Source of the DNA: a virus
Taxonomy: Duplodnaviria > Caudoviricetes
Length of the DNA: 64,000 nt
Virus record (IMG/VR): IMGVR_UViG_3300042691_031247
Reading direction: 5' to 3' (one strand)
Part shown: positions 97 through 11,922 of the stretch, in pieces
Position numbering within the stretch: the first letter of the stretch is position 1
Layout: each line of letters starts with the position of its first letter
Notes under the pieces: generated by a model
Seen by the model: only the letters and a program-made list of their open reading frames with translations
Database searches by the model: none
Told to the model about the DNA's origin: nothing
Made by a program: the position numbers and the translations under genes

Positions 97-598
97 CGGG
101 TTTCGTTTCTCCGGCGGTCAAGGGTTCAGTTTTAAAGTAGTTGTTAGCAGCCGCGGCTCGAATATAGTCTCCAACCAAAAGGTCGTGACCAACCTCAATA
201 AAAGCAAATTTGCGCAGCGTATCTTCCATGTACTCAGCGTCTATAACGAGCGTGTCGGGCCACGACGCGGCTTCTTCGGCGTATAGCTGGTCTGCGCCGT
301 TGGCTTTGTAAAACTTTATTACTTCGTTACGGTAGACCTCTTCTGCCGCGGGCCCGCGTAAAATTTTGGCTTCAACAGCTGCCTCTGCGCTATTGTCGTC
401 CTCGTCGTGCACTGCGGCGAGCCGGAGCGTGCAAAGGCAGCTCGAAAGCTGCGCTATGATCGTTGACACCATTTCGTCGTCTTGGTTTTCGCAGAAGCTG
501 CTCGCAAACGCGCGCATCAGCAGTTCTTCGATAATTTCCGCTGTTACGGGTTCTTTGTTTGCAACTAGATAATGCAGCCGTAAATCTTCTTTGCTCAT
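80..598 (-). CDS. Hypothetical protein
   Basis: 172-aa ORF, ATGA overlap with the upstream gene. Confidence 0.7.
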   Translation of the reverse strand: MSKEDLRLHYLVANKEPVTAEIIEELLMRAFASSFCENQDDEMVSTIIAQLSSCLCTLRLAAVHDEDDNSAEAAVEAKILRGPAAEEVYRNEVIKFYKANGADQLYAEEAASWPDTLVIDAEYMEDTLRKFAFIEVGHDLLVGDYIRAAAANNYFKTEPLTAGETKPDGSAQ

Positions 599-3800: not shown

Positions 3801-3999
3801 GCTTTAACTCCAGTACCACAAATCCGACAGGGTTACAGTTAGTTAGTTTTTGGGCGTCAATTTCAGCTTCAGCTTTATTGTCGTACACCTTGCCGGGTTC
3901 AACTCCGGCGTCAGCGCACGTCGGCCCGCGATAGGCCCATGGCGCGGTAGGGTTATCAAACGCTCGCGACGACTTCATGATGATGTACTTTGTTGTCAT
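3781..3999 (-). CDS. Hypothetical protein
   Basis: 72-aa ORF in a tandem array; GGAG upstream. Confidence 0.6.
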   Translation of the reverse strand: MTTKYIIMKSSRAFDNPTAPWAYRGPTCADAGVEPGKVYDNKAEAEIDAQKLTNCNPVGFVVLELKHEHAKV

Positions 4000-4354
4000 T
4001 ATTTAGCTCCTTCTCTAGATTTTTACCTCTTCCAAACATCCACGAGTCGCCGTCTTCTGGTTGAATGCGGCGCAGCCAGTCGGCAACACTGGGGATGCGG
4101 CCAAGGTCTTCGTTGACGTGCTGCTCGCCGATATACCGTACCGGCACGACGCGCCCGTCAGAATTTGTGATTACCTTTCCGAAGATTCGTTCTGATAAGA
4201 AAATCCCTTCGGAGTGGTGCCGCAGCGCGCGATGGCGAAAGTCGGCCATGTGCGCTTTTGATCCATCAAACCATTCGTGGATCGCGAGATAGTCGTCTAC
4301 CTCGCCTCCCCACTTGCGCACTGACGACAGCGCGTGATGGTACGGATGTGCCAT
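3956..4354 (-). CDS. DUF6915-like protein
   Basis: MAHPYHHALSSVRKWGG...IHEWFD.SK...RHRALRHHSEGIF signature. Confidence 0.8.
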   Translation of the reverse strand: MAHPYHHALSSVRKWGGEVDDYLAIHEWFDGSKAHMADFRHRALRHHSEGIFLSERIFGKVITNSDGRVVPVRYIGEQHVNEDLGRIPSVADWLRRIQPEDGDSWMFGRGKNLEKELNNDNKVHHHEVVASV

Positions 4355-5213: not shown

Positions 5214-5657
5214 TCACCACTCGTTTTGCGTCGTGGTTGTTTCCATGATGCGCTCGTTGTGCTGGTGCTTGATCTTGCCTTTGAGCGTATCGATTTCAAT
5301 TTCGCCAAAACTACCTTCGTTAATCTCCCAGCCGCCCGGAAGAAGATCCCAAAGCGTATCATAAAACTCCGCAAGCTTTTCGAGCGAAATAATGGGCTTG
5401 GCGTCAGTGCCGGTCGGCGTTGCGTACTGCCGCTTGAACTCTTCGAAATACACTCTGCGGCCGTTTGTCGACGATTCCATGGCTTCGCTGTCGTGCTGCG
5501 CTACGGGGTCGCAGAACCAAAAACAGAGTTCTTGAAAGTCCCCGGAATCGCCGCTGCCGTCATACGAGGCAATTACCCGTGTAACGCCAAGCGCATTAAA
5601 CAGCGGGCAGATTTCTTTAAGCGTTTCAATTGGCGTTTTGACTTTAGTTTTTGCCAT
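5214..5657 (-). CDS. DUF6878-like protein
   Basis: YDGSGDSG...GWEINEGSFG motifs; start moved to ATG 5657 just after the upstream TAA. Confidence 0.7.
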   Translation of the reverse strand: MAKTKVKTPIETLKEICPLFNALGVTRVIASYDGSGDSGDFQELCFWFCDPVAQHDSEAMESSTNGRRVYFEEFKRQYATPTGTDAKPIISLEKLAEFYDTLWDLLPGGWEINEGSFGEIEIDTLKGKIKHQHNERIMETTTTQNEW

Positions 5658-5658
5658 G

Positions 5659-6162
5659 TTAATAAGACGCGTATACCGTACAGGGTTTACCGGTTTTCTT
5701 TTCTTTCTCTTCAGCAAGCGTGACAAAATTTTGAAATGACTCGACCACGCGGTCCGCAAGGTCAGACTGTTCGCCGTATAGTCGCGCTTGCCGTTCACGT
5801 ACAGCCTCTTCGACCGTCATTGGTCTTGTTGTGTCGCTTCTGATGTTTCCGCCTTCTGCAACCTTGGCGCCAGTTGATTGCACCATATCCAAAAACATTG
5901 CAGCGAGCTTGTGCCCGTCGCCGGTCATTGCTGGTTCTGTGACACGCGTTAGCCGTTCGCGCATAACAGCGGCAGGAATCTGCGCCCGGCAATCGTCAGC
6001 CTCGAACGCTTCGCGCACAAGGATTCGCGTGGCATACGGGCCGCCGTGGTACGCTTCGCGCAGATAACCGACGTGACCGGACGTGGTAGAAAAACCAGTG
6101 GCTTGCGCCGACTTTTCTTCTTCTTCCATCCCGTCCCATTCCAGATAGATATCAATACCCAT
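5659..6162 (-). CDS. Conserved hypothetical protein (MGIDIY...GHVGYLREAYHG)
   Basis: 167-aa ORF, 1-nt overlap with the upstream gene. Confidence 0.75.
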   Translation of the reverse strand: MGIDIYLEWDGMEEEEKSAQATGFSTTSGHVGYLREAYHGGPYATRILVREAFEADDCRAQIPAAVMRERLTRVTEPAMTGDGHKLAAMFLDMVQSTGAKVAEGGNIRSDTTRPMTVEEAVRERQARLYGEQSDLADRVVESFQNFVTLAEEKEKKTGKPCTVYASY

Positions 6163-6477: not shown

Positions 6478-6810
6478 TCACTGGCAGCAGCAGCCGCGCG
6501 GGCCGCGGCAGCTACGCGTGCGGATTACGCGGGCCGGCGCTGTCACAACGCGCACCGGAACCTCTACGACGGCGCGGGTTACCGTGCGGGTCTTCTCGAT
6601 CGTCCGACCGAACAGACCATTGCGGCACGAGCTGCGGCACGAGCTTTCCGTGCAGCAGGTGCCGTTGGCGCACGCCGGTGCGGCCTCGGCAGCTACCGCC
6701 GGAGCGGCAGCAGCGGGCTGCACGAGCACGCTCTGCGGTTCGCCGGCATCGCCAGCAAACGCCACGGACGAAACAAACGCAAGGACCACAGCTGCAAAAC
6801 AAGACTTCAT
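6478..6810 (-). CDS. Small exported Cys-rich, Ala/Arg-rich protein with signal peptide
   Basis: MKSCFAAVVLAFVSSVAFA signal peptide (AFA cleavage motif), CANGTCC..C..C, GLFGR, terminal CRGPRGCCCQ; GGAG SD. Confidence 0.7.
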   Translation of the reverse strand: MKSCFAAVVLAFVSSVAFAGDAGEPQSVLVQPAAAAPAVAAEAAPACANGTCCTESSCRSSCRNGLFGRTIEKTRTVTRAVVEVPVRVVTAPARVIRTRSCRGPRGCCCQ

Positions 6811-6954: not shown

Positions 6955-7221
6955 TTATTCACGCACTACGTGAACGTTGTACCAGCGCATTTTATCGTTG
7001 AGCCACTTGGCCTCGGCGGCGAGTGCGTCTGCGCGCGACTCAAAGTTACGCAGAGACGGCCCGCCAACTGGCGATAAATCAGCAATCCACTCTCCCGGAA
7101 TTGTCGGGTCAGGCTCAACATGACTGGCACGTTTGATATCAAGCTCTCCCAGCGCTTTTAGGTTGATCTCTTCGCCATAGAGACATTGCGCTGAGCCGTT
7201 GGGGCGAATGTATAGCTGCAT
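6955..7221 (-). CDS. Small conserved protein (IxRASHVEPD...WxADLSPVGGP), usual partner of the DUF1257/DUF2997/AAA module
   Basis: Motif recalled from planctomycete gene clusters. Confidence 0.7.
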   Translation of the reverse strand: MQLYIRPNGSAQCLYGEEINLKALGELDIKRASHVEPDPTIPGEWIADLSPVGGPSLRNFESRADALAAEAKWLNDKMRWYNVHVVRE

Positions 7222-7225
7222 TGTG

Positions 7226-8227
7226 TTACATCGACATCAGACGTCGAGAGGGTATTAGCTCGTTCATGTTAACCGCTCGCGGCAACTGCGCCACGGCTGC
7301 AGGCGTATACAGGTTTTGTCGTCGCCGCTCAGACCTTGACACGTTGTACGCATTAAATTGCGTAACGTTGTCAATGATTGCTCCCGCAAACAACGCGTCT
7401 TCATGCACGTCTTCGCGAGCGTAGGTTTGCGACGGGCCATCATACGTAGGGCGAAAAATGATATGACCGCCGGCTGCAACAGCATGGCCGCGAAACGCTA
7501 ACAGGGCATTGATTTGTTCGACGTTTGCAATGATGGCGTAGTCGACAACTTTTAGACGTGACCGTTCAAACGTCGGGTCGTTCTGCTCACGCGAGTAGAT
7601 CGACACTTGCATCAGTTTGCTGCCCACGACCTGCGCTTTCCCGGCAATAGTGACAAAGCCGCGAAGCACAGAACTGCTGATTTGCGCTTCGCCGCCGACG
7701 TACGCCTGACCTTCGAGCGACGTTTGAATTGCAATCGCTTTTCCCGAAATACCGCAGTGACCGCGTAACGTGCAACTGATAACGCGGGCGCTGTCTCTGA
7801 TAAACGCGTTTTCGTACGCAGTTGTCGAGCCAGAAACAACACCGCCGTATACACGGGCTTCGTTTGAGAACTGGCAGTCGTCCATTACTCGGGCCCGGCC
7901 GCTGACGCTCGCAAACTGGTTCAGTTTTACGTTTCCGCTGACGTGCGCGTATCCGCAGATCTGGGCCCGATTATGCACGCGTACGTTGCCCTCAACACGG
8001 GCGTTGTGATACACCTGCGCTAGCTTGTAAACAAAAACCGAATCGGCAACTTTTGCGGTATCTGCTACCCAGCCCTCGCCGTTAACGTGTCGATGTGCAA
8101 ACACGCGGCCGTTACCGTCTTTGAAATCATGCTTTGATGCCCGCTTCTTTTTTGGTTTGACCGCGGTCATCACCGCTGCCGCCGCATCCAGCACGGCGAC
8201 AGCGCTGTCTTTTTGTTCCTCCATCAC
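7226..8227 (-). CDS. Hexapeptide-repeat (left-handed beta-helix-like) protein
   Basis: Six-residue periodicity (A[RKQ]VxxxA[RKQ][VI]xG); GGWVA-like lead-in GEGWVADTAKV. Confidence 0.75.
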   Translation of the reverse strand: MMEEQKDSAVAVLDAAAAVMTAVKPKKKRASKHDFKDGNGRVFAHRHVNGEGWVADTAKVADSVFVYKLAQVYHNARVEGNVRVHNRAQICGYAHVSGNVKLNQFASVSGRARVMDDCQFSNEARVYGGVVSGSTTAYENAFIRDSARVISCTLRGHCGISGKAIAIQTSLEGQAYVGGEAQISSSVLRGFVTIAGKAQVVGSKLMQVSIYSREQNDPTFERSRLKVVDYAIIANVEQINALLAFRGHAVAAGGHIIFRPTYDGPSQTYAREDVHEDALFAGAIIDNVTQFNAYNVSRSERRRQNLYTPAAVAQLPRAVNMNELIPSRRLMSM

Positions 8228-9171
8228 GACTCCATCGGAAGGACACGCCGTCTGGGCGCGTTTGTGATCAGACTGTCGAGCGCGGTTTTAACCTCGCCCA
8301 TCTGCTGCGTCAGGTTTTGCCGTAGGTTGTTGTTTTTACGCAAATCCTTGACGTCGATACCGGACACAAGCTCGTTGGCTTGCCTAATGAGTCTTTCTAG
8401 TTGCGCATTCGAACGCACGTTCATGTCCTGAAAATTCTCGTAAAACTCTTTGAAGTTCTCGATAGCCGAAACCTTGAACGTCTTTTTGGTTCCGTCTGGC
8501 TCGTCGGTCAGCCGCTCGATGAGATGCGAGATCATGTCTTGCAGCTGCTCGGCAAACGCGTTCTCGGCCATGACTACAGCCGTCTCAAACCGTTGTTGGA
8601 CGCGTTGCTGTTCCTGTTGATACAGTTCGGGATTAAACGTCATTAGGTAGTTTGGCGGCTCAACGGGCGGGTACTCCCAGCGAAGATCAAATACACCATC
8701 TAGTGACGCCGGGTAGTCCGCAGGGTTGTATAGATCACCCAGCTTTTCGCGGGCGGCGGTTTTTAACGTTTCGTATTCTAGTTGCAGGTTGGCGGCCGCG
8801 GCGACCAGCTGTTCTTTGTACTCGCGCATCCGATCTTCAAACGCGCCGATGTCCGCCTGTTTGATTAGTCGCACGCCGTCCTGCGGATATGGCAACGTGA
8901 CGGCTCTCCAGTACGCCGCCGCCTGACTCTTGAGCGTGGTTAGCACGCGATATGTCGTGTTCTTTGTATCGATAAGGCGCTTGGACGCTGTGACCAGATC
9001 GGTGGCGGCATGAAACGTATCAGCGGCTTGCTTGGTCTGCGCATCAGATAGCTTGCGCTGCGTCCCTAACCACGAGAACGACAGCTTGACGGCGCCCATC
9101 GTCTGGCGCAAGTCGCTAGCTGTCTGCTCCACTGTCGTGTTTTCTTCGATCGTTGTGTCGGTTGTGGACAT
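8224..9171 (-). CDS. Helical/coiled-coil protein (DUF3150-like) of the AAA module
   Basis: VKLSFSWLG...LPYPQDGVRLI...ADYP...F.VSAIENF..F...NVRSN; long amphipathic helices. Confidence 0.7.
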   Translation of the reverse strand: MSTTDTTIEENTTVEQTASDLRQTMGAVKLSFSWLGTQRKLSDAQTKQAADTFHAATDLVTASKRLIDTKNTTYRVLTTLKSQAAAYWRAVTLPYPQDGVRLIKQADIGAFEDRMREYKEQLVAAAANLQLEYETLKTAAREKLGDLYNPADYPASLDGVFDLRWEYPPVEPPNYLMTFNPELYQQEQQRVQQRFETAVVMAENAFAEQLQDMISHLIERLTDEPDGTKKTFKVSAIENFKEFYENFQDMNVRSNAQLERLIRQANELVSGIDVKDLRKNNNLRQNLTQQMGEVKTALDSLITNAPRRRVLPMES

Positions 9172-9771
9172 TCAGTCTCCTTCTTCGTCTGTGTCGAGTT
9201 CTTCTTCAATTGTTTGCTCCACCCACTCGTCGATTGCAAACGCTTGTACAAGTCTCTTTGGTAATTTTTCTAGTTCGGCCAGATTGTCGGGTACGCTAAA
9301 CTCTTGAATGTCGCCGTTGCGGTAAATTCCGCAAAAACCTACGCCCGGCTCAAAGCAATAGGCTGTGATATCAAAACCCTCAACAATGCGCAGGTGGTCA
9401 AAGAACTGAATTGGCGGTGACCAAGCTGAATCGAAAACGAGTGTGATGTGTTTGGATTTTGGCGGCACGCGCTTTGGCGTTTGATCCGTTTCGCGCCCGA
9501 CGTCCCATTTCGTTCCCCAATGACCGACCTGCCAGTCGTACCAGTTTTTCGCCCCGTACAACTCAATGTTTTGCCGCTCTTGCGTCTCTAACGCGAGTTG
9601 CGCGTCAGACCCGGTAGGGCCCGCACAACCAGCTATAGTCGCTTTTAACTCGGCGGGGCACGGCAGAAATGTGCCCATAAGACAACCACTGTTCCATGCG
9701 CGCACTAACTTGTGCAACTGCTGCGGGTCGGTGTGTTTAAACGTAACTTTGTTGGCGCACCAGTTAGGCAT
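9172..9771 (-). CDS. DUF1281/YubB ferredoxin-like domain protein
   Basis: MPNWCAN start (ATG 9771), NWYDW...WGTKWDV, FDSAWSPP, EPGVGFCG. Confidence 0.8.
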   Translation of the reverse strand: MPNWCANKVTFKHTDPQQLHKLVRAWNSGCLMGTFLPCPAELKATIAGCAGPTGSDAQLALETQERQNIELYGAKNWYDWQVGHWGTKWDVGRETDQTPKRVPPKSKHITLVFDSAWSPPIQFFDHLRIVEGFDITAYCFEPGVGFCGIYRNGDIQEFSVPDNLAELEKLPKRLVQAFAIDEWVEQTIEEELDTDEEGD

Positions 9772-9782
9772 GTGTTCGCGCT

Positions 9783-9829
9783 GCAAGCCGCAGCTGCGGG
9801 GCTGTAACACCCCGCAGCCGCAGTCTTGC
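9783..9829 (-). other. Long intergenic hairpin (19 bp, two G.U pairs, one bulge)
   Basis: Minus strand GCAAG(A)CTGCGGCTGCGGGG / CCCCGCAGCTGCGGCTTGC; mismatches are G.U only on the minus strand. Confidence 0.65.
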
Positions 9830-9835
9830 TAGCAC

Positions 9836-11320
9836 TTAGCCCTTTGCGGGCGCAGCGACACGACGCGGCCGCTGCGTGGTAACGGCAGGCTTACCAACAC
9901 GCGTGTAAATACCGCGGTTGTCAGCCGACAGGCAACGACCTTCCGCCCAGCCGCGCAGACGCTCGATCTGCTCCGCCGACGTCACGGAGATCGGTACCAC
10001 GTTCTGCGCCGCTTCAACAAGCGGGATATCAAGCAGCGCCGCGAGACGGCAGCACGACTTGATCTCGGCGCCCGTCCAGTTGGCGTCGTCCGGCTTTTCC
10101 TGCGACTCATCTACGCCGAAGTGCTTCAGGTAGATATCCCAGATCGCCGCGCGCTGGTCAGCGCCGGGCAGATCCACGAAGAAGATACCGTCGAAGCGCT
10201 CGGCGCGGGCAAACGGCGCCGGCAGCTGGCTGGCGTCGTTGCAGGTACCGATGAAGAACACATCGGACGTGTGATCGTTGAGCCACGTCAGCAGCGTGCC
10301 GAACAGGCGCGCTGAGACACCGGAATCGGTCTGACCAGAGCTTCCGACGCCGGCAAGACCCTTCTCGATCTCGTCGACGAACAGAACGCACGGGGCCATG
10401 GCGTCGACCTGCTTGAGCGCACGCCGCATGTTACCCTCGGACTCGCCCACGAACTTACCCATGAGCGAACCGAAATCCAGCATTACGGTCGGCCGGCCGA
10501 CCTCGTTGCCAAGTGCTTTAGCAAACTGCGACTTGCCGCAGCCCGGAGGCGACAGCAGTAGCACGCCCTTGGGGCGCTTTTCTACGTTAGTCTCGCCCTG
10601 ACGCCGCATGGCGCGCAGGCAGAAACTCTTCAGGTTTTCGAGACCGCCAAGGTTCTCGAAGTTCGCGTCGCCGCGATACAGGGTCATCGTCCCACTCTTT
10701 TCGAGCGTCTGGGCCTTGATACCCCAGATCGTGTCCGGCGACAGCTTGTTGTTGCGCACCAGTGACAGCGCGAATGCGTTCTCAGCTTCCTGCCGGGTCA
10801 GGCCGCGAGAGGCGTCGACGACAGCAGCTACGTCCTGTTCAGTCGGCTTGGCAAACGGCGAGCCATCCGGGAACAGCTCGTTGCATACCGTGGTCAGCTG
10901 CGGAAGATCCGGCAGCTCGTGATGCACTACCGTGAACAGCTTCTCAACCTCGGGCTGAAGCTGCAGCACCGGCGCCACGATAATGATATGTTTACCTTCG
11001 CCCTTACCCTGCACCACACGGTTAGCCAGAGCCTGCAGAACCTCGGGATTACCAAGGAAGCGGTGGAAATTCTTCAAGACAAGCAACATCGGCTGCTTGG
11101 TTTGCGGCTGATCTAGAAACCGCAGCGCCTGAAGCGGACCGGGAGCCGGAGCAGAACCCGAATACAGTTGGCGGTCGATGTCCCACACATCAAAACCCCA
11201 TTCCTTCTCTTCAGTTACGCGACGGATCGACGCAATCGCGTCATCGCACTCCTGTGATTCAATCCAGATGCCGGAGAAGCCGGCGCAAACCAGCTCCTTG
11301 ATTTCTTTTTCGAGCGACAC
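9836..11320 (-). CDS. AAA+ ATPase, Ycf46/SpoVK-like, with degenerate N-terminal ATPase domain
   Basis: Walker A SPPGCGKS, pore loop KFVGESE, Walker B VLFVDEIEK, sensor-1 GTCN, Arg finger RAERFD. Confidence 0.92.
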   Translation of the reverse strand: MSLEKEIKELVCAGFSGIWIESQECDDAIASIRRVTEEKEWGFDVWDIDRQLYSGSAPAPGPLQALRFLDQPQTKQPMLLVLKNFHRFLGNPEVLQALANRVVQGKGEGKHIIIVAPVLQLQPEVEKLFTVVHHELPDLPQLTTVCNELFPDGSPFAKPTEQDVAAVVDASRGLTRQEAENAFALSLVRNNKLSPDTIWGIKAQTLEKSGTMTLYRGDANFENLGGLENLKSFCLRAMRRQGETNVEKRPKGVLLLSPPGCGKSQFAKALGNEVGRPTVMLDFGSLMGKFVGESEGNMRRALKQVDAMAPCVLFVDEIEKGLAGVGSSGQTDSGVSARLFGTLLTWLNDHTSDVFFIGTCNDASQLPAPFARAERFDGIFFVDLPGADQRAAIWDIYLKHFGVDESQEKPDDANWTGAEIKSCCRLAALLDIPLVEAAQNVVPISVTSAEQIERLRGWAEGRCLSADNRGIYTRVGKPAVTTQRPRRVAAPAKG

Positions 11321-11362
11321 TTGTGACCTTTGTAATTTGTTTTGTGAGAGAACCGGCTATTG

Positions 11363-11554
11363 TCAGTTGCTTTCAGCGATCTGCTCGTCATTGCTGGCGG
11401 TGTAAAACTCGCCCGTCAGCTGCTCATCAACCTTTGCGCCCAGCGCCTGCTCCAGCGCGCGGGTCGCGTCCTGACACGAACTACCGGTAAAGCCGCTCGT
11501 CTCGATCTTGGTGCCGCCCTTGGGGTCGACAATGATTTCGATGGTCTTTGACAT
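11363..11554 (-). CDS. DUF2997 family protein
   Basis: IEIIVDPKG.TKIETSGFTGSSCQDATRALEQALG signature. Confidence 0.85.
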   Translation of the reverse strand: MSKTIEIIVDPKGGTKIETSGFTGSSCQDATRALEQALGAKVDEQLTGEFYTASNDEQIAESN

Positions 11555-11556
11555 GT

Positions 11557-11922
11557 TTAGAAACCTCCCGTCAGGCTGAGTTTGACCGAACCGTCCGGCA
11601 GCATTTCCTCGAACACCGAGTAGCCGCCCTTCTGCGCTTCATAAATCGCCTTTTCCACCGCGTACGCCTGCAGGAAATGATCCAGCTCTTCCTGCTTACC
11701 CCACGCGCCGTTGTAGTTGTCGTAGTTCGCCGCGCCGGTTTCAGTATTAAACACGGCCGGGAACTGCCAGCCGGGAAGCTTCACGGCGAGACCGTCCGCC
11801 GACTGACCGGCAAACAGCACATGGTGCCCGGCCTTCGGGGCCTCAAGCCCGAGACGCTTGCAAGCCGCCTCAACGGCTGCCGCGTCCTTCACTTCCGTCT
11901 TGATCTGAACGATATGAGACAT
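11557..11922 (-). CDS. DUF1257 (Ycf35-like) family protein
   Basis: MSHIVQIKTEVKD...LQAYAVEK...GY...E...DGSVKL signature. Confidence 0.85.
   Translation of the reverse strand: MSHIVQIKTEVKDAAAVEAACKRLGLEAPKAGHHVLFAGQSADGLAVKLPGWQFPAVFNTETGAANYDNYNGAWGKQEELDHFLQAYAVEKAIYEAQKGGYSVFEEMLPDGSVKLSLTGGF

Follow-up and report, generated by a model that had tools for sequence, protein, structure and literature searches.

Cofactors dock on the AAA+ ATPase p97 through arginine-rich VIM and VBM motifs. Cyanobacteria and plastids carry an orphan set of three families, the AAA+ protein Ycf46, the DUF1257 protein Ycf35 and DUF2997, and in cyanobacteria the genes for DUF2997 and ycf35 adjoin the ferredoxin gene fed7 (PMC4284462). 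AAA+ modules of the IetAS and sgiAT type are carried on mobile elements (PMC10954446). We found no mechanistic study in the literature for DUF1257, DUF2997, DUF3150, phage Ycf46, PRTRC, DUF6915 or DUF6878, the DUF families being mentioned in passing only, and no paper in the literature searched explains the set of genes described here. We analyzed a 64,000-nt stretch of phage DNA (IMG/VR record IMGVR_UViG_3300042691_031247; the whole stretch is called the window below) in which five genes between positions 6,955 and 11,922 encode a AAA+ ATPase, two small proteins of the DUF1257 and DUF2997 families, a divergent DUF3150-family protein and a RASHVEP-motif protein of an unnamed family, p88. We observe that the ATPase travels with two gene pairs, DUF1257 with DUF2997 and the DUF3150-like gene with p88, across unrelated phages and integrating elements.

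Five gene families travel together in phages and Planctomycetota

All five genes are intact minus-strand open reading frames (ORFs), and their boundaries are exactly those given in an initial annotation of this DNA. From the 5′ end of the operon they encode the DUF1257 (Ycf35-like) protein (11557..11922, 121 aa), the DUF2997 protein (11363..11554, 63 aa), the ATPase (9836..11320, 494 aa), the DUF3150-like protein (8224..9171, 315 aa) and p88 (6955..7221, 88 aa). Two further genes are inserted among them, at 9172-9810 and 7226-8227, as the same annotation had claimed. Gaps or overlaps between neighbors in the operon run from -4 to 42 nt, and no minus-strand terminator-like site lies between operon genes, the sole candidate falling inside the DUF1257 ORF. 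The phage that carries the operon is large (~200 kb), tailed and known from freshwater metagenomes. Near-identical IMG/VR contigs measure 198-205 kb, and among the genes of the window are those of the large terminase subunit (phrog_675, 1e-53) and of a baseplate wedge protein, which bears out the claim of phage carriage.

A scan of viral contigs recovered 68 loci, about 45 of them syntenic and from the same phage clade as the window, and 23 from distant phages whose ATPases are 28-47% identical. Prokaryotes, scanned at one genome per species, yielded 374 relatives; the best 80 of these were analyzed and are almost all from Planctomycetota, with 50-59% identity and often several copies per genome. 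Partners were sought in the distant phages and in cells with profile hidden Markov models (HMMs) built from the close phage clade, and were found in both sets. When 2,981 ORFs from 148 loci were clustered all against all, the five module families were the only ones common to close phages, distant phages and cells. The complete set is present in 21 of the 30 cellular loci with full flanks, confirming the recurrence in Planctomycetota given in the initial annotation. Cultured phages carry the genes as well: all five are found in Tunturiibacter phage Tunturi_3 (gp103, gp102, gp101, gp99 and gp96) and four of the five in Rhizobium phage L338C.

The two gene pairs are tightly linked. The DUF2997 gene always comes directly after the DUF1257 gene, in phage and cellular loci alike, and the cellular p88 gene directly follows the DUF3150-like gene, usually with a 4-nt overlap. 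In one phage lineage the ATPase and DUF3150 at first looked to be the sole members present; closer comparison added a divergent DUF1257-like gene (hhalign probability 72%) and, by sequence pattern only (hhalign probability 2.9%), a candidate DUF2997-like gene. Our neighborhood check upheld the proposal that the five genes form one module, as they co-occur beyond chance in independent phage lineages and cellular elements, with a gene order that varies by lineage. Since the same set is found in unrelated phages and in integrating elements of Planctomycetota, it probably constitutes one undescribed machine of mobile DNA.

The AAA+ ATPase

In almost all relatives, no gene of the region is better conserved than that of the ATPase. 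An N-domain of ~215 aa precedes a single AAA module with classical-clade active-site motifs (PF00004, 1.4e-27; phrog_8638, 2e-82), and the closest solved chains to this module are those of the D2 ring of Cdc48/p97/VAT (E = 5e-44). Among the 103 family members compared, the lysine of Walker A (motif at residues 257-265, GCGKS at 260-264) is 100% conserved, the DE of Walker B (VLFVDE, 312-317) 95%, the sensor-1 asparagine (N361) 99%, and the two arginine fingers of the second region of homology (SRH), R372 and R375, 100% each. The pore loop reads KFVG in the window (289-292), and its V-G is kept in 97-99% of the family. The intact Walker A and B motifs, aromatic pore loop and Arg finger that had been reported for this protein are thus all found and conserved, with one reservation about the aromatic position that is taken up below. 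Judged by these motifs, nothing expected of an active classical-clade translocase is missing from the ATPase.

The N-domain aligns weakly to the AAA domain of the same protein (hhalign probability 43%, E = 2.5e-4). The alignment spans Walker B, sensor 1 and the start of the lid, and the catalytic residues are not kept. The N-domain may therefore be a degenerate AAA-like fold, and the architecture may be that of a dead ring followed by a live ring. A profile search of the PDB with the N-domain did not confirm a degenerate AAA fold; the matches that it gave, to a lectin neck repeat and weakly to dynein (E = 0.026), were rejected as spurious. No MIT-like domain was found in the N-domain by Pfam or by the PDB profile search.

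The genes on the ATPase side of the operon had been described as GC-rich, and a host origin had been suggested for them. The first part stands: the AAA, DUF2997 and DUF1257 genes have a GC content of 0.58-0.61 and a GC content at third codon positions (GC3) of 0.73-0.77, versus a window GC of 0.55. The second, taken as a recent host origin, is not supported. In a maximum-likelihood tree of the ATPase the phage copies group together as a sister clade of the planctomycete copies and do not branch from within them, so the composition bias does not argue for a recent transfer from a host.

A group I intron (RF00028, 68-72 bits; L035:8939-9721, L049:8954-9741 and L038:6384-7171) interrupts the ATPase gene of several phages of the window's own clade at Walker B, between VLFVD and EIEKG. 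The ORFs read in L035 include a 186-aa HNH homing endonuclease carried within the intron. The copy of the ATPase gene in the window is intron-free.

Partner proteins

The window DUF2997 protein matches PF11211 over the full length of the profile (59.8 bits versus a cut-off of 24.1; 2.4e-16) and has a single conserved cysteine, C27, which is present in 102 of 107 members. The match of the 121-aa protein to DUF1257 (PF06868) is sub-threshold, at 17.7 bits versus a cut-off of 22.2. Thirteen of its 24 aligned relatives match that profile, the best at 4.4e-15, and its nearest Atlas clusters carry PF06868; on these matches we read it as a divergent DUF1257 member. Its N-terminus, Met-Ser-His, is shared by 92 of 110 family members, and in one phage lineage the DUF1257 counterparts begin with Met-Pro-Cys instead. 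The candidate DUF2997-like proteins of this distant lineage have a His in place of the conserved cysteine, and those at L059:11219-11428, L060:4840-5055 and L061:3927-4196 have His-rich tails in which 6-10 of the last 25 residues are His, a hint of metal binding.

Pfam does not match the 315-aa protein directly, and its assignment comes from relatives and from its predicted structure. Nine of 14 relatives match PF11348 (DUF3150), the best at 1.3e-20. A structural model with a mean predicted local distance difference test score (pLDDT) of 88.6 and a predicted template modeling score (pTM) of 0.78 matches DUF3150 entries of the AlphaFold DB (E = 1.5e-19; TM 0.80 over 287 residues) and a DUF3150 cluster of the ESM Atlas (TM 0.78). 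The predicted fold is compact, with a five-stranded sheet, long helices and a C-terminal four-helix bundle. Its nearest fold neighbors in the ESM Atlas are mostly viral, and the family comprises at least 11,871 clusters at 50% identity.

Other searches with the DUF3150-like protein gave little. The PDB fold matches listed for the model (Foldseek, VIA-align) were generic four-helix bundles, whose Z of at most 9.8 does not rise above the noise that helical proteins give, and no ESCRT-III, PspA or Vipp1 chain is among the matches listed for the full-length model (Foldseek against the PDB and the wide VIA-align search). PDB profile matches of the family alignment were to designed helical bundles and were discarded as spurious. 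No match was obtained in a plasmid tblastn search with a phage DUF3150 protein, and no informative domain fusion occurs in long DUF3150-like representatives. In one metagenomic protein (P0260; 327 aa, truncated) the C-terminal two thirds of a DUF3150-like protein are joined in frame to a p88 domain; this single case may be a natural fusion or a frameshift artefact. Tunturi_3 gp96 (L150:6905-7864), annotated as an HNH endonuclease, is actually DUF3150-like (E = 1e-65 to the family HMM).

The p88 family has a strongly conserved motif, RASHVEP...W.ADLSPV.GP.LGPF..R..AL.AE..WL, and its alignment has 14 invariant columns, including R-A-S-H-V-E-P. It is represented by at least 7,975 clusters at 90% identity, none of which has a name or belongs to a Pfam family. 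A model of the window protein (pLDDT 80) has a beta-beta-beta-alpha core. The best match of this model, to a HicB N-domain or dsRBD-like fold, was set aside at Z 5.3, which is the noise level, and a PDB profile search with the p88 alignment returned nothing. Pfam, NCBIfam, PHROGs and PADLOC gave no function for either the 315-aa or the 88-aa protein. We found p88 in 10 of 201 sampled Planctomycetota genomes, in 1-4 copies each, a patchy pattern that is expected of a mobile element.

Shared C-terminal tails of the ATPase and the DUF3150-like protein

Both the ATPase and the DUF3150-like protein end in a short basic tail. In the window the two tails are alike: that of the ATPase ends in QRPRRVAAPAKG (9839..9880; RPRRV) and that of the DUF3150-like protein in NAPRRRVLPMES (8227..8265; PRRRV). 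In the latter, R308 is the only invariant column of the family alignment, and residues 309-314 have a pLDDT below 50 and are modelled as disordered. The tail motif differs by lineage, changing jointly in the two proteins. The two tails are KRRVVR and RRRVVR in L048, KKRNIN and KRRKIN in L053, and KKKVIR and KRKVVR in L065, and in a distant phage group both proteins end in [KR]-x-[ILA]-[DE]-[FIM]-COOH.

Using 16 lineage representatives, we found a tail similarity of 15.6 for proteins of the same lineage versus 12.1 for mismatched pairs (permutation p ~3e-4). No such effect is seen in the specificity controls, which were internal segments and the tails of DUF1257 and p88. The tails, which co-vary between lineages, would be most simply explained if both bind one common site on a component of the module, an arrangement that would combine docking with autoinhibition.

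Inserted and neighboring genes

The slot between the ATPase and the DUF3150-like gene is variable and holds other cargo in other phages and in cells. In the window it is occupied by an Api92/DUF1281-like gene (9172..9810, minus strand, 212 aa; weak PF18406 match, phrog_20518 at 6.5e-17), which is present in only part of the phage clade among the close relatives compared. The second inserted gene (7226..8227, minus strand, 333 aa) encodes a beta-solenoid of the hexapeptide, bactofilin or YdcK-like type (Pfam, NCBIfam, PHROG). Only in this phage clade does it stand, invariably, between the DUF3150-like gene and p88; it evolves fast there (30-97% identity) and is found in all close relatives, and it is not present in distant phages or cells at the loci compared.

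Just downstream of p88, window positions 6478-6810 encode a 110-aa Cys-rich ORF with a GC content of 0.68 versus ~0.53 in its neighbors, followed by a strong terminator-like hairpin at 6445-6410. This ORF looks like an independently acquired cassette. Two more genes of the window are associated with the module more loosely and stand outside its core: a DUF6878-like gene (5214..5798, minus strand; ~19 Planctomycetota loci) and a DUF6915 gene (3956..4354, minus strand; ~21 Planctomycetota loci). The latter was matched by HMM in the window, and its near-identical copy in L021 matches PF21866 at 2.1e-48. Because these two genes accompany the module both in this phage and in about 20 Planctomycetota loci, this phage and the cellular elements share a gene pool wider than the five core genes.

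Cellular copies of the module have further neighbors. In two Planctomycetota contigs (L155:1-11845 and L154), a compact integrating element of ~12 kb consists mostly of the module. It encodes, in order, a large serine recombinase, a NikA-like protein, an AEP-TOTE primase-polymerase, three small genes, the five-gene module, 66-aa and 165-aa proteins and a PD-(D/E)XK nuclease, and is followed by host genes on the other strand. A 7.7-Mb Planctomycetota genome (G002, which contains L112, L113 and L126) has five separate DUF2997 matches, pointing to up to five module copies in one genome.

Two alternative sets of genes follow p88 in cells. In L112 (11110-14422), L113, L126, L099, L075 and L141, p88 is directly followed by genes for a ThiS-like ubiquitin-like protein (Ubl), an E2-like protein with an HPHV..LCEG motif and a Cys-rich C-terminus, a Prok-JAB peptidase and a ThiF E1; this cassette is found in ~9-12 Planctomycetota loci. 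In L109 (13857-15272), L103, L105, L127 and L144 its place is taken by a gene for a 470-aa divergent beta sliding clamp (profile match to DNA polymerase III beta, PDB 7rzm, E = 2.9e-6), after which come a conserved 165-aa protein and a PD-(D/E)XK nuclease. Neither the window nor any of the phage loci examined has the recombinase, primase, beta clamp, nuclease or Ubl-cassette neighbors, and we therefore regard the Ubl cassette as an optional neighbor outside the module.

In Synechococcus phage MinM2 (L151:5622-10079), a DUF3150 gene is flanked by genes for a MoxR ATPase and a VWA protein. DUF3150 thus pairs repeatedly with AAA+ motors, and these are of two unrelated kinds.

Proposed role and alternative explanations

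Genes for replication or for DNA ends are found close to the module in cultured phages, the former in L338C, MinM2 and Javan368. The reading that we favor, tentatively, is that the five genes form one mobile-element machine with a probable early role in the establishment or replication of element DNA. The ATPase would form a hexameric, substrate-threading unfoldase. The DUF3150-like protein, probably complexed with p88, would dock on it via its disordered basic C-terminal peptide (PRRRV). The tail of the ATPase itself (RPRRV) may mimic this peptide, the two tails competing for or sharing one binding site, and such competition would offer built-in autoinhibition resembling the docking of cofactors on p97 through arginine-rich motifs. 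DUF1257 and DUF2997 would make up a second small pair of adaptors or regulators, perhaps with a bound metal or a reactive thiol. Gene context makes it most likely that the machine acts early by remodelling or extracting a protein client associated with element DNA, and that it is not a virion-assembly factor.

Several observations weigh against this reading. The link to replication is guilt by association, as non-structural phage genes cluster anyway. The tail covariation rests on short basic peptides from 16 lineages, two cellular ATPases (L125 and L130) have no tail motif, and the Tunturi_3 tails match only faintly. The aromatic position of the ATPase pore loop is Leu in 54% of the family. 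Not every part appears to be obligatory, since some distant phages have no detectable DUF3150-like gene, such as the AT-rich phages L046-L052 with four of the five genes, or no detectable p88. We also looked for RNA evidence of module expression and found none: two lake metatranscriptome entries, apparently of the same data, yielded one 151-nt contig with ~96% identity over the ATPase gene, which is uninformative either way.

An unlikely alternative, though one with several observations in its favor, is that the module is an unfoldase for host takeover or counter-defence, whose partners hand over a host protein, for example a nucleoid protein or a defence factor, for unfolding and so enable establishment. 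The module lies among early-type small genes, beside an Api92/DUF1281-like gene whose family is typical of plasmid and island establishment regions, and the variable cargo of the ATPase-DUF3150 slot in phages and cells alike and the patchy, multi-copy distribution in Planctomycetota speak for such a role. The partners, however, are well conserved, p88 with its 14 invariant columns among them, whereas adaptors in an arms race usually evolve fast. One module serves hosts of several phyla, and PADLOC matched no window protein to a known anti-defence family.

We consider it quite improbable that the module is a AAA+-driven chaperone for cofactor or metal insertion, comparable to the MoxR/VWA systems CobST, NorQD and CbbQO, in which DUF1257 and DUF2997 would carry a metal or thiol group and DUF3150 would be a scaffold or target adaptor. 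The pairing of DUF3150 with MoxR and VWA proteins does suggest a role of this kind, as does the proximity of DUF2997 and ycf35 to fed7 in cyanobacteria (PMC4284462). Candidate ligands are also at hand in the DUF2997 cysteine (95% of members), the His found in its stead in candidate counterparts of one phage lineage, the His-rich C-terminal tails in three phage types of that lineage, and the DUF1257 N-terminus, which is Met-Ser-His, or Met-Pro-Cys in the same lineage; the metal-binding reading of these motifs comes from sequence alone. The conserved neighbors include no metal-dependent enzyme, no His or Cys that could be a ligand is conserved in the DUF3150-like protein, and the ATPase falls in the unfoldase clade and not in that of MoxR.

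Slimmer still is the chance that the module is a defence or exclusion system of prophages and islands, with an ATPase and sensor partners that abort infection or exclude competitors. At the domain level the AAA domain resembles IetA of IetAS (PADLOC, 6.8e-16; NCBIfam IteA, 2e-14), and cellular copies lie in islands, sometimes beside restriction-modification genes or the defence-like Ubl/E1/JAB cassettes. Searches of Pfam, NCBIfam, PHROGs and PADLOC nevertheless revealed no IetS protease or other effector domain. The module is syntenic, vertically inherited and highly conserved in the whole large-phage clade, with a self-splicing intron in some members, all of which is more readily expected of a core function of the phage than of an accessory defence.

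Finally, the idea put forward in the initial annotation that the ATPase disassembles a polymer of the long helical protein, as in Vps4/ESCRT-III or PspA/Vipp1, is not supported and seems very unlikely. The ATPase is a classical-clade AAA protein like Vps4, and the 315-aa protein is largely helical. The full-length model, however, shows a compact sheet-plus-helix fold (five strands, pTM 0.78) that does not look like an ESCRT-III/PspA hairpin, the Foldseek and VIA-align matches listed for it held only generic four-helix bundles below noise and no such chain, and no MIT-like domain was found in the ATPase N-domain.

The favored reading, an early machine acting on element DNA, can be taken further. 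The module might be a mobile-element counterpart of the eukaryotic Cdc48 'segregase', in which DUF3150/p88 and DUF1257/DUF2997 would aim the unfoldase at a DNA-bound protein, for instance a sliding clamp or a nucleoid or defence protein of the host, with the neighboring Ubl cassette coupled to it in some planctomycete elements; we regard this version as a long shot. If it were true, it would provide a testable function for the plastid and cyanobacterial orphans ycf35 and ycf46, and if the role in replication or establishment is true, the module would be a new accessory machine of phages and integrating elements. The module links three orphan sets, namely ycf35/ycf46/DUF2997 of cyanobacteria and plastids, DUF3150 of phages and plasmids, and the unnamed 88-aa family. 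The two unnamed partner families, DUF3150-like and p88, are both very large and have mostly viral fold neighbors, and phages Tunturi_3 and L338C offer tractable hosts in which the module can be studied.

Comparison with known systems

IetAS (IteA) and SGI1 sgiAT, the latter a AAA+ protein with a subtilisin-like protease, are similar to the module in their AAA domain. They differ in that the IteA match reaches 53.5 bits versus a cut-off of 510, the window operon has no protease, and the set of partners is another one. Vps4/ESCRT-III and PspA/Vipp1 likewise combine a classical-clade AAA ATPase with a helical partner; the predicted full-length fold of the module partner does not look like the ESCRT-III hairpin, and no MIT domain was found. 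The Ubl-E1-E2-JAB cassettes of the PRTRC and Bil/Bub types have a gene set similar to that which follows p88 in the Planctomycetota loci described above, whereas Ubl-cassette genes are not present in the window or the phage loci examined.

The MoxR (CobS-like), DUF3150 and VWA (CobT-like) genes of MinM2 resemble the module in placing DUF3150 next to a AAA+ ATPase in a non-structural region of a phage. The MinM2 ATPase, however, is of the MoxR/AAA_5 clade and that of the module is of the PF00004 classical clade. A VWA partner stands there in place of DUF1257, DUF2997 and p88, no VWA gene is found in the window operon, and the shared tail motif is not seen in MinM2.

Cdc48/p97/VAT is similar in the AAA module itself, which is closest to the D2 ring and has Walker A and B, sensor 1, the SRH arginine fingers and a pore loop beside a GESE motif. 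An N-terminal domain before the active ring and small dedicated partners are also common to both, and the short arginine-rich partner peptide of the module recalls the VIM and VBM motifs. Unlike Cdc48/p97/VAT, which have two active rings, the module ATPase has one. Its N-domain is unrelated to the double-psi barrel, and its four partners are from unrelated DUF families. The phage system has no ubiquitin dependence, although some cellular copies adjoin a Ubl/E2/JAB/E1 cassette.

Cyanobacterial and plastid ycf46 (AAA+), ycf35 (DUF1257) and DUF2997 probably belong to the same three families as the ATPase and its first gene pair, and DUF2997 and ycf35 are neighbors in cyanobacteria (PMC4284462). 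The points in which the ATPase agrees with Ycf46 are its size, its architecture and its DUF1257 and DUF2997 partners. The phage version differs from ycf46 and ycf35 in being mobile, carried by phages and integrating elements, and in being extended by the DUF3150-like protein and p88.

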